From the NCBI RefSeq assembly GCF_000297095.1, contig NZ_AEEA01000039.1:1-28796 (forward strand): a DNA stretch of 28,796 bases, given 5' to 3'. Of the stretch, positions 1,110 to 15,975 are shown piece after piece (positions within the stretch are counted from its first letter, which is position 1; the number at the start of each line of letters is the position of its first letter). The notes below the pieces were generated by a model that was not told where the DNA came from, did no database searches, and worked only from the letters and a program-made list of their open reading frames with translations. This stretch comes from Treponema primitia ZAS-1 (lineage in GTDB: Bacteria; Spirochaetota; Spirochaetia; Treponematales; Breznakiellaceae). The translations under genes were made by a program, and so were the position numbers.

Positions 1110-1138
1110 TTGACCGTACCTTTCTTGAATGTTATACT
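1110..1138 (+). promoter_or_regulatory. Sigma70-like promoter for the fdhF(Cys) operon
   Basis: TTGACC (1110-1115), 17-nt spacer, TATACT (1133-1138), about 60 nt upstream of the fdhF ATG. Confidence 0.5.
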
Positions 1139-1197
1139 TTCCGTTACACATGGAAAGAACTTCTATGCGCTATTCCATATACCAGGAGAGGGGTTTT

Positions 1198-3393
1198 ATG
1201 GCAAAAAATTCAGTTAAGGAGATCCAGACAACCTGTTGTTACTGCGGGACAGGCTGCCAACTCCTGTTTACGGTTGATCAGGCTGCCAACAAGATTCTTG
1301 ATGTGCATCCGGTCTGGGGCAGAACCAACGAGGGGACCGCCTGTTTGAAGGGCTGGTACGGATGGGATTATCTGAATGATCCCCAGATCCTGACCAAGCG
1401 CCTGCGGGAACCGATGATTCGCAAAAACGGCAGGAAATCTCCCCTGGAAGTGGTCAGCTGGGATGAGGCTATCAAATTTGTGGCGGATAATTTCAAGCGG
1501 ATCAAAGAAAAGTGGGGGCCCGATTCATTTTTAGGCGCCGCTTCGGCTCGCGGACCGGGAAATGAAGCGGGCTACATTACTCAGAAATTCACCCGGGCGG
1601 TTATGGGGACGAATAATATTGATCACTGCGCCCGTATCTGCCACGCCGCTTCTGTTGCGGGTTCACGGCAGACCATAGGGGAGGGCGCCATGTCCCTGTC
1701 CATTCCGGAGATTGAGGACGCCGAGGTGATCTTCAACATCGGTTATAATGCTGCGGCTTCCCACCCCATCGTAGCCCGGCGCATTGTTAAGGCTAAGGAG
1801 AAGGGCGCCTTCATCATCTGCGCCGATCCCCGGATCACAGAGACCGCCCGTATCTCGGATCTGCATTTGCAGTTAAAGGGCGGATCAAATGTGGCCCTGG
1901 TGAATTCCCTGGCAAATGTTATCATCAGCGAAGATTTAATTGATCATGAATTTGTAAAGGCCCATACCAAGGGCTTTGACGAGTTCTGGGAAGTCGTCAA
2001 GGAATACACCCCCGAATACGCCGCAACAATCACCGGCCTTTCTGCGGAGGATATACGCTTTACCGCCCGGAAGTACGCAAGCTCCAAGCACTCGGTTATC
2101 CTTTGGGGCATGGGTATCACCCAGTTCTCCCAGGGGGTTGAAACGGTTAAATGCTGCTGCAGCCTTGCCATGCTCACCGGAAATTTTGGCCGGCCCAGCT
2201 GCGGTACCGGCCCTGTCCGGGGGCAGAACAATGTGCAGGGTACCTGCGACATGGGGGACCTTCCGGATGTCTATCCGGGTTATCAAAGCGTCACCGACCC
2301 GGAAATACAGGCAAAGTTCGAAAAAGCCTGGGGGGTAAAACTTTCCAATAAAGCAGGCATTCAGCTTACCCGGGTTCCGGAATTTGTTATCCACGAAAAA
2401 GACCCCGCAAAGCGGATCCACGCCTACTATATTACCGGTGAGGATCCGGCCCAGTCGGACCCTGATCTGGAAGAAATCCGGGAGACCCTGGACCAGGTCG
2501 ACTTTGTGGTGGTTCAGGATATTTTCTGGAACAAGACCGCCGAACACGCGGACGCCATCCTGCCGGCCACCGCCTGGGGCGAGCATGACGGTTGTTACAC
2601 CAGTTCCGACCGGGGCTTCCAGCGTATCCGCAAAGTGCTGGAAGGCCAGGGCAATATCTTGCCGGATTGGGAAATTACCTGCCGTATCGCTACGGCCATG
2701 GGCTACCCCATGCACTACAACAATACTGAAGAAATCTGGAACGAGATGATCGATCTCTGTCCCAAGTTTACCGGCGCAACCTATGAAAAAATGGAGCGCC
2801 AGGGCAGCGTTCAATGGCCCTGCTGGGATAAGGGACCCGGGGACAAGGGGACCATGTTCCTCCACAAGGATGGCCGCTTTGCCACCCCGGATGGTATCGG
2901 CATACTAAAGACCTCTCCCTATCATCCGCCCACAGAGGTGGAGAACAAGGAATTCCCCCTTGCCCTGTGTACGGTCCGTGAGGTGGGGCACTATTCGGTG
3001 CGCACCATGACGGGGAATTGCCGTATGCTGCGCAACTTGGAGGATGAGCCCGGCTGGGTCGAAATGTCACCGGAGGATTGCGCCGAGCTGGGTCTCCGTG
3101 AAGGGGAGATCGTAAAGGTCCTTTCCAAGCGGGGCAGTGTCTACACCCGCTGCAAGCCCACCGAGCGGGTAAAGCCGGGGGCGGTGTACATGACCTACCA
3201 GTGGTGGATAGGGGCGTGTAATGAACTGACCATTTCTTCCCTCGATCCTTCCAGTCGTACGCCGGAGTATAAATACTGCGCCGCCCGGGTAGAAAAGATC
3301 AAGGACCAGGCCTGGGCAAAACAAGAGGTTGCCCATATCTATGAGGATATCCGGTCACGGATGCACATTGTAAAAGAGGAGGTTTTAGCATGA
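1198..3393 (+). CDS. fdhF: Formate dehydrogenase H catalytic subunit, cysteine variant (Mo/W-bisPGD enzyme)
   Basis: N-terminal CxxCxxxC 4Fe-4S motif (CCYCGTGCQ). Active-site stretch HCARICHAASVAG has TGC (1639-1641) at the position that is UGA in the paralog at 17921. The start is trimmed to the ATG at 1198 (MAKNSVKEIQTT), which follows AGGAGAGGGG and aligns with the paralog N-terminus. Confidence 0.93.
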   Translation: MAKNSVKEIQTTCCYCGTGCQLLFTVDQAANKILDVHPVWGRTNEGTACLKGWYGWDYLNDPQILTKRLREPMIRKNGRKSPLEVVSWDEAIKFVADNFKRIKEKWGPDSFLGAASARGPGNEAGYITQKFTRAVMGTNNIDHCARICHAASVAGSRQTIGEGAMSLSIPEIEDAEVIFNIGYNAAASHPIVARRIVKAKEKGAFIICADPRITETARISDLHLQLKGGSNVALVNSLANVIISEDLIDHEFVKAHTKGFDEFWEVVKEYTPEYAATITGLSAEDIRFTARKYASSKHSVILWGMGITQFSQGVETVKCCCSLAMLTGNFGRPSCGTGPVRGQNNVQGTCDMGDLPDVYPGYQSVTDPEIQAKFEKAWGVKLSNKAGIQLTRVPEFVIHEKDPAKRIHAYYITGEDPAQSDPDLEEIRETLDQVDFVVVQDIFWNKTAEHADAILPATAWGEHDGCYTSSDRGFQRIRKVLEGQGNILPDWEITCRIATAMGYPMHYNNTEEIWNEMIDLCPKFTGATYEKMERQGSVQWPCWDKGPGDKGTMFLHKDGRFATPDGIGILKTSPYHPPTEVENKEFPLALCTVREVGHYSVRTMTGNCRMLRNLEDEPGWVEMSPEDCAELGLREGEIVKVLSKRGSVYTRCKPTERVKPGAVYMTYQWWIGACNELTISSLDPSSRTPEYKYCAARVEKIKDQAWAKQEVAHIYEDIRSRMHIVKEEVLA

Positions 3394-3908
3394 ACTCTTT
3401 TATAAAAGCAAACCCGATCCGCTGTATAGGATGCAGAACCTGTTTGATAAGCTGCGTGGTTGCCCATGAGGGTAAACGGATATTCGAAATCGATCCCGAC
3501 GGCTATAACTTTAATCCTCGGCTTTTTATGGTTAAGACCGCCCGAGTCAGCGCCCCGGTCCATTGCCGGCACTGCGAAAATCCCGCCTGTAAGGCATCCT
3601 GTACTTCGGGGGCCATCTTCGTGAAGGACAATGTGGTGCTTGTGGACACAAAGAAGTGCATAGGCTGCAAGAATTGTGTCATAGCCTGTCCCTTCGGCGC
3701 GGTGGAAATCGTGGAAACCGCAGAGGTCCAGAACGACGGGTCCCCCAGGAAGATCGCCAATAAGTGCGATCTCTGCGTTGGGGTTGCGGATAGCCCCTCC
3801 TGTGTGAAGGTCTGTCCCACCGAAGCCCTGGCCCTGGTTACCGATGGTGACTTGAGCCAAAGCGTGGCGGATAAACGCAGAAATGCTGCGGCCGCTGCGG
3901 CGGTTTAA
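3390..3908 (+). CDS. hycB: HycB-like 4x[4Fe-4S] ferredoxin (electron-transfer subunit)
   Basis: Four CxxCxxCxxxCP-type cluster motifs (CIGCRTCLISC, CRHCENPACKASC, CIGCKNCVIACP, CDLC...CVKVCP). An ATGA start/stop overlap with fdhF indicates translational coupling. Confidence 0.85.
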   Translation: MNSFIKANPIRCIGCRTCLISCVVAHEGKRIFEIDPDGYNFNPRLFMVKTARVSAPVHCRHCENPACKASCTSGAIFVKDNVVLVDTKKCIGCKNCVIACPFGAVEIVETAEVQNDGSPRKIANKCDLCVGVADSPSCVKVCPTEALALVTDGDLSQSVADKRRNAAAAAAV

Positions 3909-3986
3909 GACCGGATTTGTGGGTCGGGGGTACATGAACATTTACAGCCACGGTGAACGGATTACCGAAGCAGAGGCGGAAACCTT

Positions 3987-4268
3987 ATGAGGGGCGCGGA
4001 AAAAACCGGGCCGATACTGGTACGGTGTGCGGACTGTGTCAGGGTTTCCTGTGTCCTTAATTGCGATAGTAATGCAATCGTCTGTGTCTGTGGAGATTTG
4101 TTGATAGAGCTTGATAAATGTGCTGTATGCGGGCAGTACACGGGCAACAGTATTCCTGACTGTGTTGTTTCCTGCGGATATTCCCGGGAGAAAACGGTTC
4201 TGGAAATCCTGGACGCCGGAATGAAACAGATCAGGGCGGCTGATGCCCTGTCTTTGCTGAAACTGTAA
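3987..4268 (+). CDS. Small Cys-rich hypothetical protein, possibly a degenerate ferredoxin
   Basis: 93-aa ORF with 13 Cys, including CxxCxxxxCxxxC and CxxCGx(9)CxxxC spacings. GAGGCGGA lies upstream of the ATG. It is wedged between the two hycB-like genes on the same strand, and the next gene's RBS follows its stop. Confidence 0.5.
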   Translation: MRGAEKTGPILVRCADCVRVSCVLNCDSNAIVCVCGDLLIELDKCAVCGQYTGNSIPDCVVSCGYSREKTVLEILDAGMKQIRAADALSLLKL

Positions 4269-4282
4269 GAGAGGAGTTTTCT

Positions 4283-4828
4283 ATGAGTGGAGAGGGAGCG
4301 TATTTTGTACTGGCCGACCCGGAAAAGTGTACCGGGTGCAGAGCCTGCGAGGTGGCCTGTTTTGCGGCCCACCGGCAGGGTGTCCTGAAAACGGTTGGGA
4401 CGGTTACCACACCGCTGATTCCCAATTTATACCTAACCCGGACTGGAACTATTACGATGCCCATACAGTGTCACCACTGTGAGAATGCACCCTGCCTCCA
4501 GTCCTGCCTGACCGGCGCCCTGGAACGGAAAAACGGGTCCGTGGTGGTGAACGGTAATAAATGTATCGGCTGCCGGAACTGCGCCTTGGCCTGTCCCTTT
4601 GGGGCCATCCAGATTGCGGGGGCGGAGATCCTGCCGGAACTGGCCGGCGCAGCATCGGTGTTCAAGTGCGACCTCTGCCCGGATCGGGAGGGCGGCCCTG
4701 CCTGTGTGGCCACCTGCCCCAACGAAGCGCTGCGGGTGGTTGACACCGAAGAAGAACTGCGGGAAAAGCGGATCAGGTCAAGTGAAGCGGCGGAAGCCAT
4801 TCAGGTCAGCGGCAAGGGGGTGCAGTAA
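4283..4828 (+). CDS. hycB: HycB-like 4x[4Fe-4S] ferredoxin (second copy)
   Basis: Cluster motifs CTGCRACEVAC, CHHCENAPCLQSC, CIGCRNCALACP and CDLC...CVATCP. GAGGAG lies 6 nt upstream of the ATG. Confidence 0.85.
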   Translation: MSGEGAYFVLADPEKCTGCRACEVACFAAHRQGVLKTVGTVTTPLIPNLYLTRTGTITMPIQCHHCENAPCLQSCLTGALERKNGSVVVNGNKCIGCRNCALACPFGAIQIAGAEILPELAGAASVFKCDLCPDREGGPACVATCPNEALRVVDTEEELREKRIRSSEAAEAIQVSGKGVQ

Positions 4829-4830
4829 TC

Positions 4831-6195
4831 ATGGCGGTAATTCAGATAGATAAGGATATTTGTACGGGGTGTCAGGAATGTACCAAGGTTTGTCCGGTCT
4901 ATGCCATTGAGGGAAACCCCGGTGAAGCCCAGACTGTGGTAGCTGAGCGCTGCGTCATGTGCGGCCAATGTGTGCAGAAATGCAAGTCCTATGTTTCCCT
5001 GATCGATCACGGCCCGGAAATGTACAATAAAAAGCGGGAGGAGCGGATGCTGCCGGAAACGGTGCGGGAGCCCCTTTTTGCAGCCCATAACGTGAGCCAC
5101 CTGGCGGAACTTATCAAGGTCCTGGATGATCCATCCCTATTCACGATTGTGCAGGCCGCTCCGGCGGTGCGTGTGGGCATTGCGGAAGACTTCGGGCTGC
5201 CCCTGGGCTCCCTAGCCTCGGGCAAGATGGCCGCTGGCCTGCGGCGGCTCGGGTTCAAAAAAGTCTACGACACGAATTTTTCTGCGGACCTTACCATTAT
5301 GGAAGAGGGCACAGAGCTGGTAAAGCGGGTTACCGAAAAAGGCGTCCTGCCCATGTTTACCTCCTGCTGCCCCGGCTGGGTCAGATATATGGAGAACACC
5401 CATCCTGAACTTACCAAACACCTTTCCTCCTGCAAGAGTCCTCAGCAGATGGCCGGGGCGGTGTTTAAAACCTACGGGGCAAAGCTCGACGCAGTGGAGG
5501 GCGCCAAGGTTTATAACGTGTCGGTCATGCCCTGTACCTGCAAGACCTTTGAGGCCGCCCGGGAGGAGATGAACTCCTCCGGTTGGCAGGATATCGATGT
5601 GGTGATCACCACCCGGGAACTGGGTTACCTTCTTAAGTACAAGGGCATAGATCTGGCCACCATGCCCGATGAGGAATTTGATATGCCCCTGGGTGAGTAT
5701 ACCGGGGCCGGCGCCATCTTCGGCGTAACCGGCGGGGTTATGGAGGCGGCCATCAGGACCGGCTATACCCTGATCACCGGCAAGGAATTGAAGGATGTGG
5801 ACATCAATGCTGTGCGGGGAAACGAAGGGTTTCGGCGTGCGGAGATCAAAGCCGGGGATCTTACCCTCAAGGTGGGGGTGGTTACTAACCTCAAGAACAT
5901 AGACCCGGTGATAGAACAGCTCCAAGCGGGAACCCTGGACGCCCACTTTGTGGAAGTCATGACCTGCCCCGAAGGTTGCATCTCCGGCGGAGGCCAGCCG
6001 AAACTTCTGTCGGATACTGATACGGCGGAGGCATACCAGAGCCGGCGCAAGGCAACCTATGACCATGACAAGGCCCTGCCGAAGCGGAAATCCCACGAGA
6101 GCGGGGCTATAAAAAAGATCTACGCCGAATTCCTGGAGAAGCCCAACGGACACAAATCCCACGAGCTTCTGCACACGAGCTATAAGAGTGAATGA
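4831..6195 (+). CDS. hydA: [FeFe]-hydrogenase catalytic subunit with N-terminal 2x[4Fe-4S] domain
   Basis: H-cluster motifs TSCCPGW, MPCTCKTFE and EVMTCPEGCISGGGQP, plus N-terminal CTGCQECTKVCP / CVMCGQCVQKC. The gene starts 2 nt after the hycB stop. Confidence 0.92.
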   Translation: MAVIQIDKDICTGCQECTKVCPVYAIEGNPGEAQTVVAERCVMCGQCVQKCKSYVSLIDHGPEMYNKKREERMLPETVREPLFAAHNVSHLAELIKVLDDPSLFTIVQAAPAVRVGIAEDFGLPLGSLASGKMAAGLRRLGFKKVYDTNFSADLTIMEEGTELVKRVTEKGVLPMFTSCCPGWVRYMENTHPELTKHLSSCKSPQQMAGAVFKTYGAKLDAVEGAKVYNVSVMPCTCKTFEAAREEMNSSGWQDIDVVITTRELGYLLKYKGIDLATMPDEEFDMPLGEYTGAGAIFGVTGGVMEAAIRTGYTLITGKELKDVDINAVRGNEGFRRAEIKAGDLTLKVGVVTNLKNIDPVIEQLQAGTLDAHFVEVMTCPEGCISGGGQPKLLSDTDTAEAYQSRRKATYDHDKALPKRKSHESGAIKKIYAEFLEKPNGHKSHELLHTSYKSE

Positions 6196-6799
6196 GGATT
6201 CCCCGCCCCTGACCGGCAGCGCCCTGATTTTGGCCGGGGGCCGGGGAACCAGGATCGGTTATGACAAAAAGAAGCTGGAACTGGCCGGGGAGCGGGTGCT
6301 GTCCAGCCTTGCGGAACGGCTGGGGAAACTGTTCAATGAGGTACTCATCTCCTCCAATAACCCTACGGGGTTGATGGATCTCATTACCCTCCCCGACAGC
6401 ATTGGTGAGGGGCCTATGGCGGGCATCTATCAGGGCTTGCTGCGTTGTACCAGCGAGTACCTCTACGTGGTTGCCTGCGATATGCCCTTTATCAATGTTG
6501 ACTACATCGCCTATATGCGGGAACTCCTTGTCCGGGAAGGGCCGGATGTGTGTATTGCCCGCCACGAAAACGGCGACCTGGAACTTTTTAATTCCTTTTA
6601 CAAAAAAAGCTGCGCTGCACCCATGGGGGAAGCCCTGTCCCGGAGTATATACAAGATACGCCTGGCTTTCGATACTCTGAAAGTAACCATGATCGATGAT
6701 GGAACGATACAAAAATTTGATAATGGGGAAATGTTTTTCAACATCAACTATAAGGAAGACCTGGAGCAGGCGGAACGCAGGACCGGGGGGACACTTTGA
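6188..6799 (+). CDS. mobA: Molybdenum cofactor guanylyltransferase (MobA-like)
   Basis: LILAGGRGTRIGYDKKKL nucleotide-binding motif, GPMAGIYQGL, and VVACDMPFI. A GTG start overlaps the hydA stop by 8 nt. Confidence 0.8.
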   Translation: MNEDSPPLTGSALILAGGRGTRIGYDKKKLELAGERVLSSLAERLGKLFNEVLISSNNPTGLMDLITLPDSIGEGPMAGIYQGLLRCTSEYLYVVACDMPFINVDYIAYMRELLVREGPDVCIARHENGDLELFNSFYKKSCAAPMGEALSRSIYKIRLAFDTLKVTMIDDGTIQKFDNGEMFFNINYKEDLEQAERRTGGTL

Positions 6800-6840: not shown

Positions 6841-7638
6841 TTAGAACCCCCCGATACAAGCGGCCCCGATGGCGCCTGCGTAGATTCCCTGGGGTAAAAA
6901 TTGCACCTCAACCTTGAGTACCTGTGAAAGCGCCTTACGGATACCGGAACTTTCCGCAAGCCCACCGGTTAATACCACCGGGGGGCGGAGGCCGACCCTG
7001 GCAGAAAGGCTGCTTATCTTTACTGCCATGGACAGCGCCACCCCTCCTACAATTTCCTCCCGGCTATAACCCTTTGCCAGGAGTCCGATGATCTCCGATT
7101 CAGCAAATACCGCACAGGTGCTGTTTAGTTGAATGATTTTTTCGGCGGCAAGTAAAGTATCCATGAGGTTTATGTCCGCGTTGAACCGTTCCAGGACCAT
7201 CTGTACAAAGCGGCCTGTACCGGCGGCGCATTTGTCGTTCATCTGAAAGGATAGCACCCTGCCGTTCTCCACTGCAATGACCTTGCAGTCCTGGCCGCCT
7301 ATATCGATAACCGTCCTGACCCCCGGCATCAGGTATTCTGCGCCCCGTGCGTGGGCGCTTATTTCGGTGACGGCCTTAGTCTTTTCCGTCGCCATGTCCC
7401 GGCCGTACCCGGTGGCAATAATCGGCATATTGCCAACCATATCATTATCAGCTGTGTTAGGGGCAATGTCGGCGGCGTTACCCCTGAGGTTCGCCAAAAC
7501 ACGGGCGGCGCTTTCCTGCAAATTCCACCCGGTGGGCTGCAGAGAAAAAGCTGCAACCCCATGCCGGTTCAGTAACACTCCCTTGCAGAGTGTGGAGCCG
7601 CAGTCTATGCCGATGACGTATTCAGCTTCCCCATCCAT
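6841..7638 (-). CDS. BcrA/BadF/HgdC-type ATPase (CoA-substrate-specific enzyme activase)
   Basis: ASKHA N-terminus IGIDCGSTLCKGV. Cluster-bridging cysteines sit in DKCAAGTGRF and STCAVFAESE. Its start abuts the stop of the upstream dehydratase-family gene with no gap. Confidence 0.85.
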   Translation of the reverse strand: MDGEAEYVIGIDCGSTLCKGVLLNRHGVAAFSLQPTGWNLQESAARVLANLRGNAADIAPNTADNDMVGNMPIIATGYGRDMATEKTKAVTEISAHARGAEYLMPGVRTVIDIGGQDCKVIAVENGRVLSFQMNDKCAAGTGRFVQMVLERFNADINLMDTLLAAEKIIQLNSTCAVFAESEIIGLLAKGYSREEIVGGVALSMAVKISSLSARVGLRPPVVLTGGLAESSGIRKALSQVLKVEVQFLPQGIYAGAIGAACIGGF

Positions 7639-8793
7639 TTACAGCATCTCAATAAAGGCGGATATACGGGTTTTAAGCTGCTCCGTGTCTCCGGAGGAAT
7701 AATCGGTCTCCAGGCTCATAAAGGGTATGCTGCGGGTCTTAAGAAATTCTCCAATGGTATAGGATTCTATGGCGTAGGTATGGCAGGATTGCAACACCAT
7801 TTCCAGCACCCCGTCGGCCTTGAATTGATCGCAGAGCCGTCCCAGCAGTTCAAGCCGGTTTGGGTTGGGACTCATCACGCTGCATCCTATATTGAGATAG
7901 TAGTCGCAGAGGGCATCGTAGGGGTCGGCGGACTCATCAATCTGCCGATCAAACTGTTTTGCCCCGGTGCAGTTTTCATAGGCCACCACCACAGCCCCGC
8001 TCTCTTCAATGACCCGGGTGAATTTTTCCGTAACTCCCCCTATGGGACAGCCGGTAACAATAATGCGCTTCGCAGCGGCGGGAATTGGATGCCTGCCGTT
8101 TTGGTATTCTTCAGTAATTCTGCTGATGGTCTCTTCCAGTTCCTGTACTTTTTTTTCATGGTCGAATTTGAACTGGGCGCCGAATAGTATCTGAAGCTGC
8201 TGTAAACCAGAGAGGGGGGCGGGGCTCATCACCGATAGTTCATACACTTTTTTTAAAAGAGCGCGTTCCCTGTTCCGTTCCCGTATAGCCTGGTGTAGTT
8301 TTTCTACCGTAATGGTTACGCCGAATTTTTCTTCCACCCTGTTCTTTAAGCGTTTAATTTCTTCCATCCAGATTGCCCGGGAAGCGGGCCTGTCCTGGTT
8401 ATGGGGAAGATCCATCACATGGACATCTTTAATTTTTCCCAAGAGTTCGTACATTTTTGTTTTCCCGTCACAGGTAGTCTCGCCAACCACCAGATCGGAA
8501 AAATACATATAGGGGCATTTATCGGCGGCGGCGAATCCGTAGGAAGCCTTAATGAGGGGGCAGAGGTTGCGGGGGAGGACCTTTTCCGCCTCGCCTATGG
8601 TTTCATCGCTGGTTGAACAAAGACCCACCGGCACAAGACCGACTGCCAAAAAAAGCTCTACCGGCACATAGGTGCAAAAGGTTCCAACCACTCCCTTACC
8701 CTGTTCCTTCAGGTTTTTCATGGCCATAAAACCCTGTTTACGGGCATCAGAAAAGGATTCAAAAATCTCGGGCAGCTCTCTTTGTTCAATCAT
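7639..8793 (-). CDS. 2-hydroxyacyl-CoA dehydratase / BcrC-BadD family protein, single-subunit (double-cubane-cluster-protein-like)
   Basis: 384-aa Cys-rich protein (FCTY, LCSTS, NLCPL, KCPY, TTCDGK, TGCPIGG, SCHTY) paired with a single activase rather than an alpha/beta dehydratase pair. Confidence 0.7.
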   Translation of the reverse strand: MIEQRELPEIFESFSDARKQGFMAMKNLKEQGKGVVGTFCTYVPVELFLAVGLVPVGLCSTSDETIGEAEKVLPRNLCPLIKASYGFAAADKCPYMYFSDLVVGETTCDGKTKMYELLGKIKDVHVMDLPHNQDRPASRAIWMEEIKRLKNRVEEKFGVTITVEKLHQAIRERNRERALLKKVYELSVMSPAPLSGLQQLQILFGAQFKFDHEKKVQELEETISRITEEYQNGRHPIPAAAKRIIVTGCPIGGVTEKFTRVIEESGAVVVAYENCTGAKQFDRQIDESADPYDALCDYYLNIGCSVMSPNPNRLELLGRLCDQFKADGVLEMVLQSCHTYAIESYTIGEFLKTRSIPFMSLETDYSSGDTEQLKTRISAFIEML

Positions 8794-8939
8794 TGTTACA
8801 TTGCTCCCTTTCGGACCGATGGGTTTACATGATTTTTTGATAGACTATCGGGAATAGTACATGCTGTCAAGCCTCGGTGGGGTTTTGTTCAGTTTTGTTC
8901 CATCATGTTTTATTTTTAGACTTTTGGATAGTACGGAAC

Positions 8940-8968
8940 TTTACATAAGCAGTTTTATCCCCTACAAT
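8940..8968 (+). promoter_or_regulatory. Sigma70-like promoter for selAB
   Basis: TTTACA (8940-8945), 17-nt spacer, TACAAT (8963-8968). A second TACAATA copy lies 10 bp downstream at 8973-8979. Confidence 0.45.
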
Positions 8969-8989
8969 ATCTTACAATAAGGAATGATT

Positions 8990-10492
8990 ATGACACTTTC
9001 CGATGCAAACGCTTTGCTGCGGTCCATCCCGGCAATGGATGACCTGCTTAACGCGCCATGGGCCGCCGAATTTTCCAGCTCTCTGGGCAGGGAAAATGTA
9101 AAAAAAATAATAGAAGAGACTCTGGATGAAATAAGGCGTGAAATAGGCGCGGGGAACTCTCCGACTAAAGTCGGCGTTACAAGCGGTGGTGTAAAGGCCG
9201 GCCTGCCGGTGGAAGAGCTTGTGGTGATCCGCGCGACAACCCTGCTCCGTTTAAAATCGTCGAGCACCCTGAAACCAGTGGTCAATGCCACCGGGGTAGT
9301 CATTCACACAAACCTCGGCCGCGCCCCTCTTGCCGATGAAGCGATTGCTGCGGTCAATGAAATAGCGGGAACCTATAGTACCCTGGAATATGATCCCGGA
9401 AAAGGCGGACGGGGTGGGCGCAATGTTCATGTTGAGTGGCTTCTCTGCCGCCTGACCGGTGCAGAAGCGGCGCTGGTGGTCAACAACAATGCTGCCGCAG
9501 TTCTCTTGGCGCTGTCGGCGACAGCCTCCGGCCGGGAGCTCATCGTCTCCTCCGGGGAACTCGTTGAAATAGGCGACTCCTTCAGAATCCCGGAAATACT
9601 TTCCTTTTCGGGTGCGAAAATGATCGCGGTGGGCTGCACCAATTCTACGCGCATAAGCGACTACCGCAATGCAATCACGGAAAACACCGCTGTGCTGCTT
9701 AAAGTACACCCTTCAAACTACAGGATAGAGGGTTTTGTCAAAACCACGGCCCGCGAAGAACTGGCGGAACTCGCCGCTGAGCGGGGACTGGTGTTTATGG
9801 AGGATCTCGGCAGCGGACTCCTCGGCCTACTTGGGGTGCCCGGTCCGCTTGGAGCGGATTTGGCAAACCGGGAATGTTCAGTCCGGAATTGTCTGGAAGC
9901 AGGCTCCGGCATCGTAACGTTTTCCGGGGACAAATTGCTCGGCGGCCCTCAGATTGGGGTGATTGCCGGGTCAAAGAAGCTTATAGACAAGATGAAGTCC
10001 CACCAACTGCTCCGGGCCCTGCGGGTAGATAAAATGACCCTGGCGGCTTTCGAGGCGACTCTCCGGCTCCATCTCTCGGGCAGGCAGGGAAGCATACCGG
10101 TAATCGGGATGATCGAAACGGACAAACCCGCCCTTCTCGAAATGGCCCGCCGTCTCTGCCGCATGTTGAAACGTACCGCTGCTTGCAACGCAGTTCCCCG
10201 CACAGTAAATCCTGGCGCCGGCGATTTCACCATTGCTGTCGTGGAGACGGAAGACGCCATAGGGGGCGGCTCTTTCCCCACCGACCTGCTTCCCGGTTTC
10301 GGTGTGGCCATAAGCTCGCCTTCATTCAGCGCAGAAACATTGGCGGCGGGACTGCGGACCGCATTTGTCCCGGTGATCCCGGCTATCCGTGAAGGTCGGG
10401 TGATCCTCCACGTCCGTACCCTTTTGCCCGGGGATGAGAAATTAATTGCCGCCTCATTCGTGTCTGCCCTTAGCAGGGATGTGGCTGGGTAA
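8990..10492 (+). CDS. selA: L-seryl-tRNA(Sec) selenium transferase
   Basis: VIHTNLGRAPL and the PLP-lysine motif FSGDKLLGGPQ. The ORF opens at the ATG at 8984, but the ATG at 8990 has better spacing from AAGGA, so the start is ambiguous by 2 codons. Confidence 0.9.
   Translation: MTLSDANALLRSIPAMDDLLNAPWAAEFSSSLGRENVKKIIEETLDEIRREIGAGNSPTKVGVTSGGVKAGLPVEELVVIRATTLLRLKSSSTLKPVVNATGVVIHTNLGRAPLADEAIAAVNEIAGTYSTLEYDPGKGGRGGRNVHVEWLLCRLTGAEAALVVNNNAAAVLLALSATASGRELIVSSGELVEIGDSFRIPEILSFSGAKMIAVGCTNSTRISDYRNAITENTAVLLKVHPSNYRIEGFVKTTAREELAELAAERGLVFMEDLGSGLLGLLGVPGPLGADLANRECSVRNCLEAGSGIVTFSGDKLLGGPQIGVIAGSKKLIDKMKSHQLLRALRVDKMTLAAFEATLRLHLSGRQGSIPVIGMIETDKPALLEMARRLCRMLKRTAACNAVPRTVNPGAGDFTIAVVETEDAIGGGSFPTDLLPGFGVAISSPSFSAETLAAGLRTAFVPVIPAIREGRVILHVRTLLPGDEKLIAASFVSALSRDVAG
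9146..9178 (+). repeat. 33-bp codon-aligned repeat copy A, encoding GAGNSPTKVGV inside selA
   Basis: GGCGCGGGGAACTCTCCGACTAAAGTCGGCGTT is identical to the reverse complement of 13117-13149. It contains the small palindrome CCGAC-TAAA-GTCGG. Confidence 0.95.
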
Positions 10493-10493
10493 G

Positions 10494-12452
10494 ATGGAGG
10501 AGTATCCTTTCATATTGGGGACAGCCGGGCATATCGACCATGGCAAAACAGCCCTTGTGCGCGCCATGACCGGCATTGACTGTGACCGCCTTGATGAAGA
10601 AAAACGCCGGGGTATAACCATCGAACTCGGATTTGCCCCCTTGAATTTGCCCAACGGTAAGACCGTCAGCATCGTTGATGTTCCCGGACACGAACGCTTC
10701 ATACGGACAATGGCCGCAGGCGCCGCCGGCATGGATGCCGCCATGCTGGTAATAGCGGCAACCGAAGGGGTCATGCCCCAGACCAGGGAGCATCTTGATA
10801 TTCTGAATATTCTTGGAGTTAGATTCGGCCTCGTGGCGTTGACAAAGAAAGATTTGGCGGATGATGAAACCCTTGAACTGGCAACTGCGGAGGTGGTCGA
10901 ATTAACCCGGGGGACCTGTCTTGATGGAGCGCCGATCATACCGGTTTCATCGGTAACGGGCGAAGGTGTTTCACGCATCGTGGAGGAAATAGAAAAGATA
11001 ATTGATAAAATACCCCCCAGAGATGGCCGGGGCGCATTTTTCCTCCCCATTGACCGGGTCTTCAGCAAAAAAGGCTTCGGAAGCGTGGTAACCGGGACAT
11101 CCTATCAGGGGAGTATTTCCGAGGGCGATGAAGTGGAAATAATGCCTTCAGGTGTGGGAGGAAGGGTGCGTTCCCTCCAGACACATGGAGCGAAAGTCAG
11201 TTCCGCTACCGCTGGGCAGCGGGTAGCCGTTAACCTGGCCGGCATTTCCCATGACCAAATAGAGCGGGGAGCCGCGGTCTGCGAAAAAGGGGCTTTCGTT
11301 GCCACCGACTGCATAAGCGCATGGCTTGATATATTGCCTTCCGCGCATGAAGGCGTGGCCCACTGGCAGCGGGTACGGTTCCATGTGGGGACAACTGATG
11401 TGGTCGCCAGAATATCGCTTCTGCGATTGAACGCTGATATGAAAAAATCAGGCATACTTCCGGGAAACAGCGGACCGGTGCAGCTTTTGTGCGAATCAAA
11501 AATAACGGTTGCAGCCGGACAAAGGTTTGTGATACGTTTTTACAGCCCCCTCATTACCATAGGCGGCGGGCGGGTTATGCTGCCCAACGCCGAACTGGCG
11601 CGGGGCAAAGCGGATCGGGAAGCTAAAGCCAGGATAGTTGAAGGCCTTGCCGCCGACTTCAGCCCCGTCACCCTGCTTGCGGCAATTATCCATGATAAAG
11701 GAATTCTCAGCGTATCCGGCCTATCCGAGCTTTCCCAGATGGGCAAGGACCCCTTTACTGAGTCTTTAAGCGTACTGTCCTCAACACCGGACACATACGG
11801 ATTTTTGGAATTCGGGACCCCGCAGAATTTTATCTCCAGCGAAGCCTTCGACACGGTAACCCGATCAGCCCTGCGTATTCTCCATGAGTTCCATACAAAA
11901 TCCCCCGAACTCTCCGGGCTGGATGCAGAAAAACTATTTACATCCCTGGATAGCGTTCACGGCTCAGGCCTGGTTAAAGTCGGGGATTTCAAAGTCCTCA
12001 TCGACATAATGGCGGCAAGAAATGCTATAACCCCGGTCGCCGTGCAGGGGAAAACCTGTTACCGGGCGGCGGATTACCGCCAATCCGTGGATAGCAAATT
12101 GATGGATCTTGCGGGACGTATCAGGGATGAGATCGCATCTGCGGGCTTCAATCTTTTAAAACTGCCGGAACTGGAAGAAAAACTGGGCGCCACATCTTCC
12201 GATATGAAACGAGCGGCAGCATATCTGCGGGAACAAGACGATCTCAGGACGATAGAAGGGGGTCTGCTGTTTTCCCGGGAGATGCGGGATAAACTGCTTA
12301 AGGCGCTTTCTTCGATGAGCGGCGATATAACGGTTGCTTCTTTACGGGATTCCATCGGTGTGAATAGGAAAGAAAGCCTCGCGATGCTGGACTTTCTGGA
12401 CTCCCAGGGATTGACGAAGCGGGTCGGGGATACGCGGGTGCTTGTGGGGTAG
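10494..12452 (+). CDS. selB: Selenocysteine-specific translation elongation factor
   Basis: GTPase motifs GTAGHIDHGKT, DVPGHERF and TKKD, with a long C-terminal winged-helix-type extension. The ATG is 1 nt after the selA stop; the longer ORF start at 10446 lies inside selA. Confidence 0.9.
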   Translation: MEEYPFILGTAGHIDHGKTALVRAMTGIDCDRLDEEKRRGITIELGFAPLNLPNGKTVSIVDVPGHERFIRTMAAGAAGMDAAMLVIAATEGVMPQTREHLDILNILGVRFGLVALTKKDLADDETLELATAEVVELTRGTCLDGAPIIPVSSVTGEGVSRIVEEIEKIIDKIPPRDGRGAFFLPIDRVFSKKGFGSVVTGTSYQGSISEGDEVEIMPSGVGGRVRSLQTHGAKVSSATAGQRVAVNLAGISHDQIERGAAVCEKGAFVATDCISAWLDILPSAHEGVAHWQRVRFHVGTTDVVARISLLRLNADMKKSGILPGNSGPVQLLCESKITVAAGQRFVIRFYSPLITIGGGRVMLPNAELARGKADREAKARIVEGLAADFSPVTLLAAIIHDKGILSVSGLSELSQMGKDPFTESLSVLSSTPDTYGFLEFGTPQNFISSEAFDTVTRSALRILHEFHTKSPELSGLDAEKLFTSLDSVHGSGLVKVGDFKVLIDIMAARNAITPVAVQGKTCYRAADYRQSVDSKLMDLAGRIRDEIASAGFNLLKLPELEEKLGATSSDMKRAAAYLREQDDLRTIEGGLLFSREMRDKLLKALSSMSGDITVASLRDSIGVNRKESLAMLDFLDSQGLTKRVGDTRVLVG

Positions 12453-12540: not shown

Positions 12541-13710
12541 CTACACCCCATCCAGCGCCTCAAGTATCGCGTCAATATCCCCGTTGCTTGTTCTGCTCCC
12601 AAAGCTGAAGCGGATCGTCCCCCCCGGAAATGTTCCGGCGGTCCGGTGTGCCAAGGGTGAGCAGTGCAGCCCGCTGCGGGTAATTATGCTGTGGTTCTCA
12701 AACAGAAACCGTGAGACCTCTCCGGCATCGTGTCCTGGGATAGCAACTGAAACGACGGATACGCAGCGATCCGGATCAAGGGTCCCGCAGACGGCAATCT
12801 TTTTTATTTGTCCCAGCCCCGCTATAAAACGCGCCGTGGAAGCGCGTTCACGCTCCCGTATCGTTTCAACTCCTGTGCGCAAAATCTCCTCCACCGATGC
12901 GGCAAGGCTTAAGATGCCTATGGTGTTTTGTGTACCCGGCTCGAACTTGTCCGGCATGAACTCAGGCATGTCCAAGGATTGGGACACGCTGCCGGTACCG
13001 CCGCTTATCCATGGTCGCATCTGCCCTGCAGCCGCTTCTCCAATGACAAACCCTCCTGTGCCCGCAAGGCCCCGCAGCCCCTTATGGCCCGCAAACGCAA
13101 CAACATCGCTATTTGCAACGCCGACTTTAGTCGGAGAGTTCCCCGCGCCGTAATCTTCCATGGTAAACGGTAGGACGCCACCGGTCTGGGCCATGTCCAG
13201 GATGGTCAGGACGCCGTATTCATGGGCAATCCTAAAACATTCCGTTACGGGTAATATCGTACCAAGGACATTTGACGCATGGGTCATGACGAGCAGTCTT
13301 GTGTTTTTCCGTATTGCACCGCGGATTTTTTCAGGGTCCAGTGAACCATCCGGATCGCATTGGAGCCACTCAAGTTCTATCACACCATTTTTGCGGAGCG
13401 CTTCAAGTGGGCGGGCCGCCGCGTTGTGTTCCACGCTCGTGGACAGCACGTGATCCCCCTCTCTGACAAGGCCGTTTATAGCCATGTTCAGGGATTGTGT
13501 GGCGCCGCTGGTGAATATCACCCGCAGGGGATCGGCTACCCCAAGGAGCTTTGCTACAGCCCTACGGGCCCTCAGGGCAATGGCCCCTGCCTCCAGGCCT
13601 TCAAAATTCCGTCCGGCGTTGAGATGCGTCTCCCCTAAATATCCGTGCAGTTCTTGAACTACCACCGGGGATAATGCAGGAGAAGTGGCGGCGTAATTTG
13701 CGTATATCAT
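12541..13710 (-). CDS. Class-V aminotransferase-fold cysteine desulfurase / probable selenocysteine lyase
   Basis: PLP-lysine context AFAGHKGLRGLAGTGG and catalytic-Cys loop RSGLHCSPLAH. It is the last gene of the selC-DUF3343-selD-yedF string. Confidence 0.8.
   Translation of the reverse strand: MIYANYAATSPALSPVVVQELHGYLGETHLNAGRNFEGLEAGAIALRARRAVAKLLGVADPLRVIFTSGATQSLNMAINGLVREGDHVLSTSVEHNAAARPLEALRKNGVIELEWLQCDPDGSLDPEKIRGAIRKNTRLLVMTHASNVLGTILPVTECFRIAHEYGVLTILDMAQTGGVLPFTMEDYGAGNSPTKVGVANSDVVAFAGHKGLRGLAGTGGFVIGEAAAGQMRPWISGGTGSVSQSLDMPEFMPDKFEPGTQNTIGILSLAASVEEILRTGVETIRERERASTARFIAGLGQIKKIAVCGTLDPDRCVSVVSVAIPGHDAGEVSRFLFENHSIITRSGLHCSPLAHRTAGTFPGGTIRFSFGSRTSNGDIDAILEALDGV
13117..13149 (-). 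repeat. 33-bp codon-aligned repeat copy B, encoding GAGNSPTKVGV inside the desulfurase gene
   Basis: The reverse complement is identical to 9146-9178. It is in-frame on the coding (-) strand, just upstream of the PLP-lysine region. Confidence 0.95.
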
Positions 13711-13717
13711 ATCACAA

Positions 13718-14341
13718 TTATAGTGTGATAACCCCGGACGCCTTTGCCAGGGTGTTTGTTATTTTCATCATGTCAACGATACTTCCTACGGCGAGGGATT
13801 CGGTCAACTTATAGTAATTGGCGCAGGTACCGCAGGTATATACTTCCGTGCCTTTTTCCTGGAGAACTTTTAGATCAGGCACGGTGTTTGCCCCTTCGGT
13901 GGTGAGATGTGCACCGCCATTCAAAAATATAACCGCTTCCGGCAGGGGATTTAATTGGGTCAGGGAAAATATGAAACCCTTGATGAGCAGTTTCCCAAGA
14001 TCCTCCGCCCCCCTGCCCATGCTGTCCGCAGTGATGAGAACCACCGGCCCCTTCTTCACGCTCCCCACAGCGGGCGCATCAGATGCAGTTGCGGGAGCTT
14101 CCGGGGGCTCGTTAAAAGCCTTGTTGGGGTCCTTGAGGATAGTCACCTTATAGAGCGATGCCCCCTCCTCGGTGTACGAAAAACCGCAGTCTGTTCCTTT
14201 AGCCATCTTCTCAAGGTTCTGCACCGCAACAAAATTGTCTACCAAAACCACCACACCATCCGCGCCCGGTTCGGCAAGGGCTTTCTTGGCGTTTACCACA
14301 GGAATCGGGCAGGGATTTCCCTGCATATCCAATGTTTTCAT
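13718..14341 (-). CDS. yedF: Selenium metabolism protein YedF (TusA/SirA-like N-domain + DsrE-like C-domain)
   Basis: N-terminal MQGNPCPIPV (the TusA-type CP motif). About 200 aa, with a C-terminal region carrying CGTC. It lies between selD and the desulfurase gene. Confidence 0.75.
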   Translation of the reverse strand: MKTLDMQGNPCPIPVVNAKKALAEPGADGVVVLVDNFVAVQNLEKMAKGTDCGFSYTEEGASLYKVTILKDPNKAFNEPPEAPATASDAPAVGSVKKGPVVLITADSMGRGAEDLGKLLIKGFIFSLTQLNPLPEAVIFLNGGAHLTTEGANTVPDLKVLQEKGTEVYTCGTCANYYKLTESLAVGSIVDMMKITNTLAKASGVITL

Positions 14342-14374: not shown

Positions 14375-15439
14375 TTATCTGAATAGTATCACCTTTCCCG
14401 CCCTCGGCGCAACTTCCCCTATGATTGCGGCGTGTTCATCCCCGGCTTCCCTGATGCGGGCAGTAAGCGTCTCTGCCTCGTCGGGGGGCACGGCTATCAA
14501 AAGTCCTCCGGATGTCTGGGGATCGAATAACAGTTCCTGGGTGGCAAAGGGGAGCGCGCTTACATCGGCGTATTTGCTTCCACGGTTGCGGTTACGCTGG
14601 CCCGCGGCGGTCAGCAGATATTCGTTTGCATAGGTTACTGCCTCCGGGATAAGGGGCAAGGCATCGGGGTACAGTAGTATTGCCGCCTGATCCCCCGCCA
14701 TCTCCAGGGCATGGACAAGCAGCCCGAAACCGGTAACATCCGTACAGGCGCTTACGTTAAAACCCGCCATGCTCTCACAGGCATAGCGGTTGAGCCGCTC
14801 CATGGAGGCTATGGCCTGCCGAACCGCCCCCTCACCGGCCATCTCAACCCGCAGAGCAGCCATCACAATCCCTACGCCCAGGGGTTTGGTCAATATTATT
14901 TTATGCCCAATCTTTGGGGTGTTGTTGCGTATCACCTTTGCTGTCTCGACCATGCCGGTGACGGCCAGCCCATACTTTGGCTCCCTGTCGTATATAGAGT
15001 GTCCACCGCCCAAGACGGCCCCTGCCTCTGCGATTTTCTCCGCACCTCCAGCCAGTATATCTGCGAGGACACTTTTCTCCATGGCCTCGGGAAAACATAC
15101 CAGGTTCAGCGCCACCATGGGTTTGCCGCCCATGGCCCATACATCGCTCAAGGCGTTTGCGGCAGCGATACGCCCAAAGGTACGGGCATCGTCGACCATA
15201 GGGGGGAAAAAGTCCGCAGTAAAGATAAGCGAGTTTTTCTCATCAAGCATATAAACTGCGGCATCATCGGAAGTGTCGTAGCCGACCAGCAGTCGTTTGT
15301 CGCCGCTTGCAGGCAGCCCCGCCAACAGGCGGGCAAGCCCATCGCTTTCTATCTTCGCCCCGCATCCACCGCTTGTGCAGGAGGACAGTAGTCCTTTTGA
15401 CAGCAGGGACTCAGTGTTCTTACCCATCCCTTCCTCCAT
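14375..15439 (-). CDS. selD: Selenide, water dikinase (selenophosphate synthetase), Cys-type
   Basis: N-terminal glycine-rich loop TSGGCGAKI, with Cys rather than Sec at the catalytic position, and a PurM-like body. The start could instead be the ATG at 15427 (MGKNTE). Confidence 0.9.
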   Translation of the reverse strand: MEEGMGKNTESLLSKGLLSSCTSGGCGAKIESDGLARLLAGLPASGDKRLLVGYDTSDDAAVYMLDEKNSLIFTADFFPPMVDDARTFGRIAAANALSDVWAMGGKPMVALNLVCFPEAMEKSVLADILAGGAEKIAEAGAVLGGGHSIYDREPKYGLAVTGMVETAKVIRNNTPKIGHKIILTKPLGVGIVMAALRVEMAGEGAVRQAIASMERLNRYACESMAGFNVSACTDVTGFGLLVHALEMAGDQAAILLYPDALPLIPEAVTYANEYLLTAAGQRNRNRGSKYADVSALPFATQELLFDPQTSGGLLIAVPPDEAETLTARIREAGDEHAAIIGEVAPRAGKVILFR

Positions 15440-15707
15440 CCGCCCCGTTTATACCGATCTTCCTGTATCCATCCCCGGATTTCTCCCAGGCCTCTTTTAT
15501 AGCAAGTCCCCGCTCCGACAGAAACGAGGCGGCCCGTTCCAGATCTTCCGGTACAAACCTGAGGCAAAAACCGCATCCCGTTCGTATGCCCGCAGGCATG
15601 GGCATGACCCGGACATAAAACCCCTGCTCCACCAACGCCTGCTCCGCCATAATGGCCTGGGTGACACTATCGAAACCGATGATTAGTTCTTTGCTGTTAC
15701 TTTCCAT
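15420..15707 (-). CDS. DUF3343-like small protein (putative Se/S carrier)
   Basis: 95 aa counted from MESNSKELIIGFDS, with a conserved-looking GCGFCLRF. The listed ORF extends to 15893, but that extension runs through the tRNA-Sec gene, so I trimmed the start to the ATG at 15705-15707. Confidence 0.65.
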   Translation of the reverse strand: MESNSKELIIGFDSVTQAIMAEQALVEQGFYVRVMPMPAGIRTGCGFCLRFVPEDLERAASFLSERGLAIKEAWEKSGDGYRKIGINGADGGRDG

Positions 15708-15758
15708 GCGAGCTGCTATCGTACGGGGTAATGGGCTGCGCTTTTGACAACAAAAAAA

Positions 15759-15852
15759 TGGCGGAGGCGTGTGAGAATCGAACTCACCAAGGACGTTTCC
15801 ACCCTTTGACGGATTTGAAGTCCGCAGCCGCCACCAGGCGACATTCACCTCC
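15759..15852 (-). tRNA. selC: tRNA-Sec (anticodon UCA)
   Basis: The 94-nt reverse complement is GGAGGTGAATGTCGCCTGGTGGCGGCTGCGGACTTCAAATCCGTCAAAGGGTGGAAACGTCCTTGGTGAGTTCGATTCTCACACGCCTCCGCCA. It has a long acceptor stem, a 6-bp D-stem with 4-nt loop (GTCGCC-TGGT-GGCGGC), anticodon loop CTTCAAA, a long variable arm, T-arm GTGAG-TTCGATT-CTCAC, and an encoded CCA. Confidence 0.9.
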
Positions 15853-15860
15853 ACAGAATA

Positions 15861-15889
15861 ATGATAAGATTGTGAAGCTTTGTTGTCAA
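15861..15889 (-). promoter_or_regulatory. Sigma70-like promoter for selC
   Basis: On the minus strand: TTGACA (15884-15889), 17-nt spacer, TATCAT (15861-15866). The -10 ends 8 nt before the mature tRNA 5' end. Confidence 0.6.
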
Positions 15890-15975
15890 TCACGGCGGTG
15901 GAAACTACGGATCGGAGCTCGGAAACCCTTTTTCGGGATATTAAACCGGGTATATTAATTTTTTTTGGAAAATGC

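Follow-up and report, generated by a model that had tools for sequence, protein, structure and literature searches.

The window analysed here is the complete 28.8-kb contig NZ_AEEA01000039.1 (28,796 nucleotides) of Treponema primitia ZAS-1, whose genome comprises 3.79 Mb at a completeness of 99.99%. Between positions 6841 and 8793 it carries two genes which, as judged from their sequences, encode a genuine two-component double-cubane system, namely a double-cubane cluster protein (DCCP) and its ATP-dependent activase. DCCP genes go together with selD, the gene of selenophosphate synthetase, and this phyletic link holds up as an association in two independent genome samples from two phyla. DCCP enzymes probably help to make selenium usable, and we tentatively propose that the pair acts as an ATP-driven reductase that frees selenide for SelD.

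The structural definition of double-cubane cluster proteins dates from 2018, and their reducing power is nitrogenase-like. To our knowledge no physiological substrate has been assigned to any DCCP, and we know of no settled account of the source of selenide for SelD in anaerobes or of the roles of YedF and DUF3343 proteins. The locus and its relatives join two questions, the substrate of DCCPs and the way in which anaerobes make selenide for SelD. The gene pair itself is an ordinary member of a known family, close homologues of which NCBI already names double-cubane reductases, and the selenium association of DCCP has already been published. What the window adds is the context of a termite acetogen with an HDCR module, a test of trait independence, negative controls and a comparison with a congener.

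Identity of the gene pair

The 384-residue protein matches the HGD-D family (PF06050) with 402.6 bits and the equivalog model NF040772 (“double-cubane-cluster-containing anaerobic reductase”) with 526.8 bits (526.6 bits in the genome-wide search) at a cut-off of 350 bits, and it stays far under the cut-offs of HadC (107 vs 700 bits), BzdN (60 vs 454 bits) and BcrC (56 vs 421 bits). A phmmer comparison with the DCCP from Carboxydothermus hydrogenoformans (PDB 6ENO) gave an E-value of 1e-79. The AlphaFold2 model (pLDDT 89.1) has 6ENO as its top Foldseek match (TM 0.90, root-mean-square deviation 1.8 Å over 367 columns), followed by HadC, BzdN and MbdN with TM values of about 0.8. Eight cysteines (Cys40, 59, 78, 93, 108, 275, 304 and 337) are invariant when 35 DCCPs of both the short and the long type are aligned. 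Cluster ligands were identified from a review (PMC7317905) together with the alignment to 6ENO: C40, C59, C78, C108, C275, C304 and C337 align to the conserved cysteines of that structure and represent the published seven-cysteine motif, which comprises six ligands of the [8Fe-9S] cluster and the equivalent of Cys94 beside it; their spacings (x18-x18-x29-x166-x28-x32) are near those of the published motif (PMC7317905).

Two classes of DCCP are distinguished. Class I proteins are long (CHY_0487-like, about 420 residues) and possess a channel-closing N-terminal extension. Residue 25 of the Treponema protein aligns to residue 61 of 6ENO, so it is about 36 residues shorter at its N-terminus, and it falls into the short clade of the trees; by sequence it is a class II, short YjiM-like DCCP. 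The short class is described as lacking the channel-closing N-terminal helices and may admit larger substrates (PMC7317905).

The activase reaches 218.2 bits with TIGR00241 (cut-off 125.4) and 191.8 bits with PF01869. It matches HgdC (1HUX) at E 1e-50 and the reductase component DCCP-R (7YYL_E) at E 4e-41, besides HadI and MbdQ, and both cysteines that ligate the [4Fe-4S] cluster in HgdC 1HUX are conserved (C137 and C175). An activase gene adjoins the DCCP gene in 70 of 79 ortholog loci. The genome also encodes two proteins of about 1500 residues, each with two BcrAD/BadFG ATPase domains (G000:C163:36656-38422 and G000:C171:30747-32429); these fused activase-type proteins are unrelated to the DCCP locus.

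The preliminary description of this DNA had recognised a single-subunit double-cubane protein with its own ATPase, had called for a count of the ligand cysteines against characterised sequences, and had noted that a second dehydratase subunit, a CoA-transferase and acyl-CoA genes are missing nearby. All of this is borne out: NF040772, the fold match to 6ENO and the adjacent activase agree, all seven motif cysteines are present, and the window DCCP is the only PF06050/NF040772 gene of the whole genome, which excludes a heterodimeric dehydratase or reductase. A subunit of a 2-hydroxyacyl-CoA dehydratase or of a class I benzoyl-CoA reductase is thus ruled out by this single gene and by the low family scores, and profile scans of the 28.8-kb window found no CoA-transferase or acyl-CoA genes. 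The idea that DCCPs might themselves be selenoproteins was dropped as no DCCP match in the Clostridia and Treponematales samples described below contains an in-frame stop.

Association with SelD and selenium genes

From the class Clostridia 399 genomes were evenly drawn, and DCCPs were called above the NF040772 cut-off, where a clean gap from 455 to 270 bits divides the scores. A DCCP was found in 32 of these genomes and every one of them (32/32) has selD, a gene present in 67/399 Clostridia overall (17%) and in 35/367 of those without DCCP. Fisher's test gives p 7e-29, a value overstated by the relatedness of the genomes. Clostridia that have only non-DCCP homologues of the HGD-D family remain at background (selD in 4/16). 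In the order Treponematales (151 genomes), with a selD background of 62/151 (41%), the eleven genomes with DCCP all possess selD (11/11) compared with 51/140 of the others, and one congener genome is without both DCCP and selD. Among the control genomes DCCP, selD and DUF3343 occur together only in Escherichia coli and Methanocaldococcus jannaschii. The counts from Clostridia and Treponematales reproduce the phyletic pattern of DCCP and SelD (955/970) published by Haft (2022; bioRxiv 10.1101/2022.07.06.499078).

Most DCCP-containing Clostridia (30/32) also have selA. The two that lack it contain yqeB and yqeC, which stand for the selenium-molybdenum cofactor trait, while selU was not found in them, and in one of the two the genes yqeC-yqeB-yedF-selD-DCCP-activase form a single block. 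Since DCCP accompanies selD even in selA-less genomes, it tracks SelD itself and not formate dehydrogenase or any one downstream use. A case of “orphan SelD” explained by DCCP alone was looked for among these genomes, but the presence of yqeB and yqeC in both selA-less ones leaves none.

The gene neighbourhoods point in the same direction. At 54-89% identity 80 ortholog loci were fetched, of which 79 were scored; an unbiased set came from the Clostridia sample (43 stretches with 45 DCCP matches, 44 DCCP genes scored), and 17 loci with HGD-D genes below the cut-off served as controls. Neighbours within 9 kb were scored with hidden Markov models built from neighbour clusters. As DUF3343 occurs in 276/399 Clostridia, strict selenium genes (selD, selA, selB, yedF, SclA-type desulfurase and LysR_Se) were counted apart from it, which lowers the unbiased figure from 24/44 to 8/44. 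Strict genes lie beside DCCP in 30/79 ortholog loci (20/38 of those with full flanks) and in 8/44 unbiased loci versus 0/17 controls. The preliminary description had asked for a survey of linkage to selA, selD or yedF and had set conservation outside this genome as a test in advance. The linkage recurs, arranged in 30 distinct gene orders, across Spirochaetota, termite-gut Deltaproteobacteria, many families of Bacillota and one metagenome-assembled genome (MAG) of Candidatus Xenobia. Genes of acyl-CoA metabolism or amino-acid fermentation, a tie to which would have told against the idea, are not among the recurrent DCCP neighbours. In an earlier STRING-based list the HGD-D and activase genes already appear without comment (Lin et al. 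2015, PMC5322559, Table 1).

The SclA-type desulfurase is, together with yedF, the commonest strict selenium neighbour of DCCP (24 ortholog loci). Tight co-directional yedF-sclA-DUF3343-DCCP-activase clusters are found in Sporomusa and Anaerospora (Negativicutes), Peptococcia and Peptoniphilaceae, and Lachnospiraceae show the order abcP-abcS-abcA-DCCP-activase-selD-LysR_Se-sclA-yedF-DUF3343, in which the regulator is the curated selenium-metabolism LysR (NF040786, 349.8 bits). In 17 ortholog loci the genes immediately upstream of DCCP encode a cystine-type ABC importer, the ATPase of which is found in 38/79. At the yedF/DUF3343 end an Fe-S flavoenzyme of 630-660 residues recurs that combines OYE and pyridine-nucleotide-disulfide oxidoreductase domains (BaiCD- or 2,4-dienoyl-CoA-reductase-like); it is seen in the Clostridia locus L106 (13590-15479, minus strand) and in eight Lachnospiraceae loci (e.g., L065 18035-20029). 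In closed 2.8-Mb genomes of another Treponematales family (locus L151, G412:C1:2661000-2680900) one long and one short DCCP are accompanied by an activase, DUF3343 and a LysR_Se-type regulator, with selD far off; the sister genome G479 contains only a truncated DCCP match (positions 2-247 of 372, 315 bits).

DUF3343 itself lies within 9 kb of DCCP in 23/44 sampled loci. Most loci of the long class (DCCP of about 425 residues; L095-L130) have the order DCCP-DUF3343-activase with carrier matches of 53-85 bits, and short-class loci have sclA, yedF or selD more often than long-class loci. In E. coli K-12 (NC_000913.3, 4563668-4565850) the yjiM-yjiL operon ends in ytiA, annotated as an 85-residue “uncharacterized protein”, which overlaps the end of yjiL by 4 nt and matches PF11823/DUF3343 with 48.9 bits; therefore E. 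coli possesses a three-gene module of DCCP, activase and carrier. A Cys-Gly pair is invariant in 51/51 DCCP-linked DUF3343 proteins. Because of its frequency in Clostridia DUF3343 was dropped as a selenium marker; its lack of specificity argues for a cysteine-based chalcogen carrier as partner and not for selenium by itself.

A DCCP gene beside hydA or fdhF is found in the window, its congener, a Treponema MAG, termite deltaproteobacterial MAGs and an Acetobacterium woodii-like genome. In the last of these (Clostridia, L106; G318:C1:944400-964300) the order fdhF1-hycB1-fdhF2(Sec)-hycB2-fdhD-hycB3-hydA2, where Sec denotes selenocysteine, fits the description of A. woodii (PMC3315566). Directly behind hydA2 follow DCCP-activase-sclA and, on the other strand, DUF3343 and yedF; selD and selA lie upstream of fdhF1, so that a selenium island with a DCCP surrounds the HDCR operon of this genome. 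Its DCCP is placed beside E. coli YjiM in the tree and well away from the Treponema clade. The idea that HDCR and DCCP passed together in one transfer between Treponema and A. woodii-like Firmicutes was dropped since their DCCPs belong to different subclades. The adjacency is most simply read as a tendency of selenium islands to contain DCCP as well as the main selenoprotein gene. Of the role in selenium or formate/CO2 metabolism that had been suggested for the pair, the selenium part thus stands as an association through recurrent linkage and the selD pattern, and the formate part looks secondary, because DCCP follows SelD in selA-less genomes and the HDCR adjacency arose in two DCCP subclades.

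The locus in Treponema primitia and its history

The features of the window are compiled in Table 1. The stop codon of the DCCP gene is directly followed by the activase ATG (...CTG TAA ATG GAT..., i.e. TAAATG), and the DCCP start at 8793 and the selA start at 8984 leave a divergent spacer of 190 bp. The translational abutment, the divergence from selAB and, by profile matches across the window, the placement between the HDCR module and the selenocysteine genes are therefore as the preliminary description had them. On its minus strand the spacer shows TTGACA-17-TAGTCT and a GGGAG Shine-Dalgarno site before the DCCP ATG, and on its plus strand TTTACA-17-TACAAT on the selA side. An Rfam search of these 190 bp gave no match, and a riboswitch or known RNA was dropped as an explanation of the spacer.

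Table 1. Features of the window around the DCCP gene pair (positions in the 28,796-nucleotide stretch)
Feature	Position	Strand	Remarks
fdhF(Cys), hycB, Cys-rich open reading frame, hycB, hydA, mobA (HDCR-type block)	1129-6799	+	context
ATP-dependent electron-donor ATPase (activase/DCCP-R, “archerase”)	6841-7638	-	265 aa; TIGR00241, PF01869
DCCP (double-cubane cluster protein), short YjiM-like class	7639-8793	-	384 aa; NF040772
Divergent spacer, DCCP operon/selAB	8794-8983		190 bp; indel junction 8808-8823
selA and selB, Sec synthase and Sec-specific elongation factor	8984-12452	+	TIGR00474 489.6 bits; TIGR00475 328.2 bits
SclA/EF2568-type class-V desulfurase, candidate selenocysteine lyase	12541-13710	-	TIGR01977 377.4 bits, cut-off 377
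YedF, selenium-metabolism sulfurtransferase-like	13718-14341	-	TIGR03527 187.4 bits, cut-off 110
SelD, selenophosphate synthetase	14375-15439	-	TIGR00476 369.6 bits
DUF3343 (PF11823 Se/S carrier)	15420-15893	-	PF11823 72.1 bits, residues 70-136
tRNA-Sec	15759-15852	-	ARAGORN

On the HDCR side and on the strand opposite to the pair, the order is focA, fdhF(Cys), hycB, a Cys-rich open reading frame, hycB, hydA and mobA. As mobA ends at 6799 and the activase gene at 6841 on the other strand (41 bp, convergent), the two groups are not co-transcribed. Beyond selA-selB follows the convergent string of DUF3343, selD, yedF and the SclA-type desulfurase with tRNA-Sec upstream of it, then a transporter gene and a Sec-type fdhF. 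The desulfurase scores 465.5 bits with the SclA model NF040779, under its cut-off of 525. The SelD match of the window is without an in-frame stop (Cys-type), unlike the selD genes of most Clostridia and many Treponematales, which contain one in-frame TGA (Sec-type). DUF3343 is present in a single copy in the genome search (15486-15686, in the selD operon). Its real gene probably comprises about 90 codons and starts near 15690 with selC just upstream, since tRNA-Sec lies inside the 5' third of the 157-residue reading frame and the PF11823 match begins only at residue 70. In termite-gut acetogens the pair of Sec- and Cys-type formate dehydrogenases responds to selenium supply. The genes of the DCCP pair go unmentioned in the main text of a selenium RNA-seq study (Matson et al. 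2013, PMC3892789).

Over the 16 kb compared, the window DNA is 86-89% identical to that of the closed congener genome G424 (4,059,867 bp), and the DCCP pair is intact in both at 93% protein identity. In the congener the operon comprises five genes, abcP-abcS-abcA-DCCP-activase, divergent from selA, and the importer overlaps DCCP. A stretch of 2.7 kb with abcA, abcS and abcP (L156 10527-13240), which encode the ATPase, the binding protein and the permease of a cystine-type ABC importer, has no counterpart in the window by blastn; the junction lies at window positions 8808-8823, so that the window DCCP borders on the sequence that separates importer and selA in the congener. No termite Treponema locus other than that of this congener has the importer.

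The DCCPs of termite Treponema form one clade (SH-aLRT 97) that is sister to those of termite-gut Deltaproteobacteria/Adiutrix; together they join Peptococcaceae (99) and are nested in Bacillota. DCCPs from another Treponematales family are placed elsewhere in the tree, and this pattern points to horizontal exchange among members of the gut community.

Proposed function and known systems

By homology, ferredoxin or flavodoxin would supply one electron to the [4Fe-4S] cluster that bridges the activase homodimer, and ATP hydrolysis would force this electron on to the [8Fe-9S] cluster in the DCCP homodimer, which would act as a far stronger reductant than normal carriers; an ATP-driven push of a low-potential electron into the double cubane is described for the activase dimer (PMC9351452). 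We infer the substrate and the direction of selenium flow as follows. Selenium would be reduced from the Se(0) or perselenide level, possibly while held as Cys-S-Se on DUF3343, YedF or the SclA-type lyase; alternatively an imported selenium compound such as selenocystine may be the substrate. The product, selenide, would be converted by SelD to selenophosphate, which would serve selenocysteine synthesis (here for the Sec formate dehydrogenase) or the selenium-molybdenum cofactor. Because a cystine-type ABC importer precedes DCCP in many loci and SclA is a frequent neighbour, a salvage route is suggested in which a seleno-amino acid is imported, a lyase frees its selenium, a carrier holds it, DCCP reduces it and SelD consumes the product. 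The reaction of selenocysteine lyase requires a reductant for the release of selenide, and we know of no physiological reductant of the bacterial enzyme. It is also possible, though put forward more guardedly, that DCCP, activase and DUF3343 together constitute the missing ATP-driven selenide-generating reductase of anaerobes. The module would be an accessory, energy-driven means of selenium mobilisation, useful in habitats such as the termite gut where selenium is scarce or tied up in insoluble or reduced form.

If true, this would be the first physiological function for [8Fe-9S] double-cubane enzymes and would add an energy-dependent step to bacterial selenium assimilation. A selenium-scavenging module shared horizontally by gut spirochaetes, Adiutrix-type deltaproteobacteria and Firmicutes would matter ecologically for termite-gut acetogens. 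The questions become testable in tractable organisms, with yjiM-yjiL-ytiA of E. coli and with the A. woodii-like pair behind hydA2.

Several points weigh against selenide release by DCCP. Thiols and thioredoxin systems are able to reduce selenite and perselenides, therefore an ATP-driven reductant of very low potential looks like overkill. We know of no experiment that ties any DCCP to selenium. About half of the selD-containing Clostridia and most selD-containing Treponematales are without DCCP, which means that selenium use does not depend on it. A genome of the Clostridia sample can contain as many as four DCCP paralogues in differing contexts, and such coexistence fits several substrates better than a single housekeeping step. 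DUF3343, the presumed partner, is not selenium-specific in Clostridia or in the data of Lin et al. (2015), and the contrast of strict genes in the unbiased set is weak when taken alone (p 0.06). The window has no ABC importer beside the pair, unlike the congener, and a search of its genome found no LysR_Se regulator. A few methanogens possess DCCP yet lack SelD (Haft 2022).

This last observation bears equally on a reversed relation, in which DCCP would consume selenium, e.g., by having selenide replace the bridging mu2-sulfide, with SelD, SclA, YedF and DUF3343 as maturation factors, for which the selenium-dependent molybdenum hydroxylases offer an analogy. Such an enzyme would reduce an unrelated small molecule. 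The strict dependence of DCCP on SelD fits, several paralogues in varied contexts would share a need for the cofactor, and DUF3343 stands between DCCP and activase in most long-clade operons without any other selenium gene; Haft (2022) has raised the possibility. We nevertheless regard selenium consumption as unlikely, as the solved enzyme from C. hydrogenoformans, produced in E. coli, has been described as an [8Fe-9S] protein with activity on acetylene (PMC7317905), no dedicated maturase comparable to YqeB/YqeC co-occurs, and no genome was found in which DCCP is the sole possible selenium user. Rather unlikely, too, is the view that there is no functional link at all here and that the pair is a passenger in a horizontally acquired island, its co-occurrence with selenium genes reflecting a shared anaerobic niche and phylogeny. 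The related genomes are indeed not independent samples and the position of the Treponema DCCPs among termite Deltaproteobacteria and Peptococcaceae inside Bacillota tells that the gene moves horizontally, but other strictly anaerobic HGD-D enzymes lack the pattern in both genomes (4/16) and loci (0/17), the linkage survives 30 rearranged gene orders in several phyla, and the pair has remained intact between congeners while their DNA diverged.

Two further explanations assign the pair to other substrates. One sees in it a reductase of an organic or organometallic compound, imported by the adjacent polar-amino-acid-type ABC importer or the SAO system for catabolism or energy metabolism, with selenium entering through obligatory selenoproteins or the niche. 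After the activase, the neighbour met most often is the cystine/glutamine-type importer directly upstream, larger substrates may enter the short class, and DCCPs are enriched beside the SAO transporter locus (Haft 2022). However, this would leave unexplained both the tight importer-less operons with sclA, yedF, DUF3343 and selD and the window, and no catabolic genes recur in the neighbourhoods, so that we consider it clearly improbable. The other, a service to formate dehydrogenase (FDH) or HDCR in which ATP would drive the maturation or reductive reactivation of hydrogenase or of the Mo/W-bisPGD or Fe-S sites in FdhF, is suggested by the hydA/fdhF adjacency described above. It appears highly improbable: fdhF is near DCCP in 2/79 loci only and hydA in 4/79, DCCP and selD persist in selA-less genomes and hence without Sec-FDH, the pair is convergent to the HDCR operon, and the two HDCR-adjacent cases belong to different subclades, as expected of shared selenium islands.

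Among known systems the closest is DCCP/DCCP-R of C. hydrogenoformans (CHY_0487/0488; 6ENO, 7YYL; Jeoung and Dobbek), which belongs to the same NCBIfam equivalog at about 40% identity and shares the seven motif cysteines, the fold and an adjacent ATPase with both cluster cysteines; the Treponema protein differs by its shorter N-terminus, its short class and its location in a selenium island. Acetylene, azide and hydrazine are in vitro substrates for reduction by DCCP (PMC7317905, PMC9351452). The E. coli operon YjiM-YjiL-YtiA likewise has a short-class DCCP followed by an activase in a selD-containing host. It is not situated beside sel genes and ends in DUF3343, whereas in the window DUF3343 is 6.6 kb off in the selD operon, and the two DCCPs belong to different short-clade subgroups. 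The dehydratases HgdAB/HadBC with HgdC/HadI and the reductases Bcr/Bzd/Mbd have the superfamily fold and the archerase-type, ATP-driven electron injection in common with the pair, but they are heterodimers with a [4Fe-4S] cluster on three cysteines per subunit and act on CoA thioesters, in contrast with the single subunit, the double-cubane cysteine set and the lack of CoA-pathway genes here. The published routes of selenium delivery to SelD (NifS/CsdB/SclA-type lyases; YedF, DUF3343 and LysR_Se according to Lin et al. 2015) have the same neighbours and the same presumed goal, yet none of these models includes an ATP-driven reductase. Finally, the Fe protein and MoFe protein of nitrogenase work in a similar manner without being members of the family: electrons pass singly from an ATP-coupled donor to a large Fe-S cluster, which reduces small molecules that are hard to reduce, although the ATPase folds are unrelated (MinD/P-loop versus ASKHA) and the cluster is a different one.

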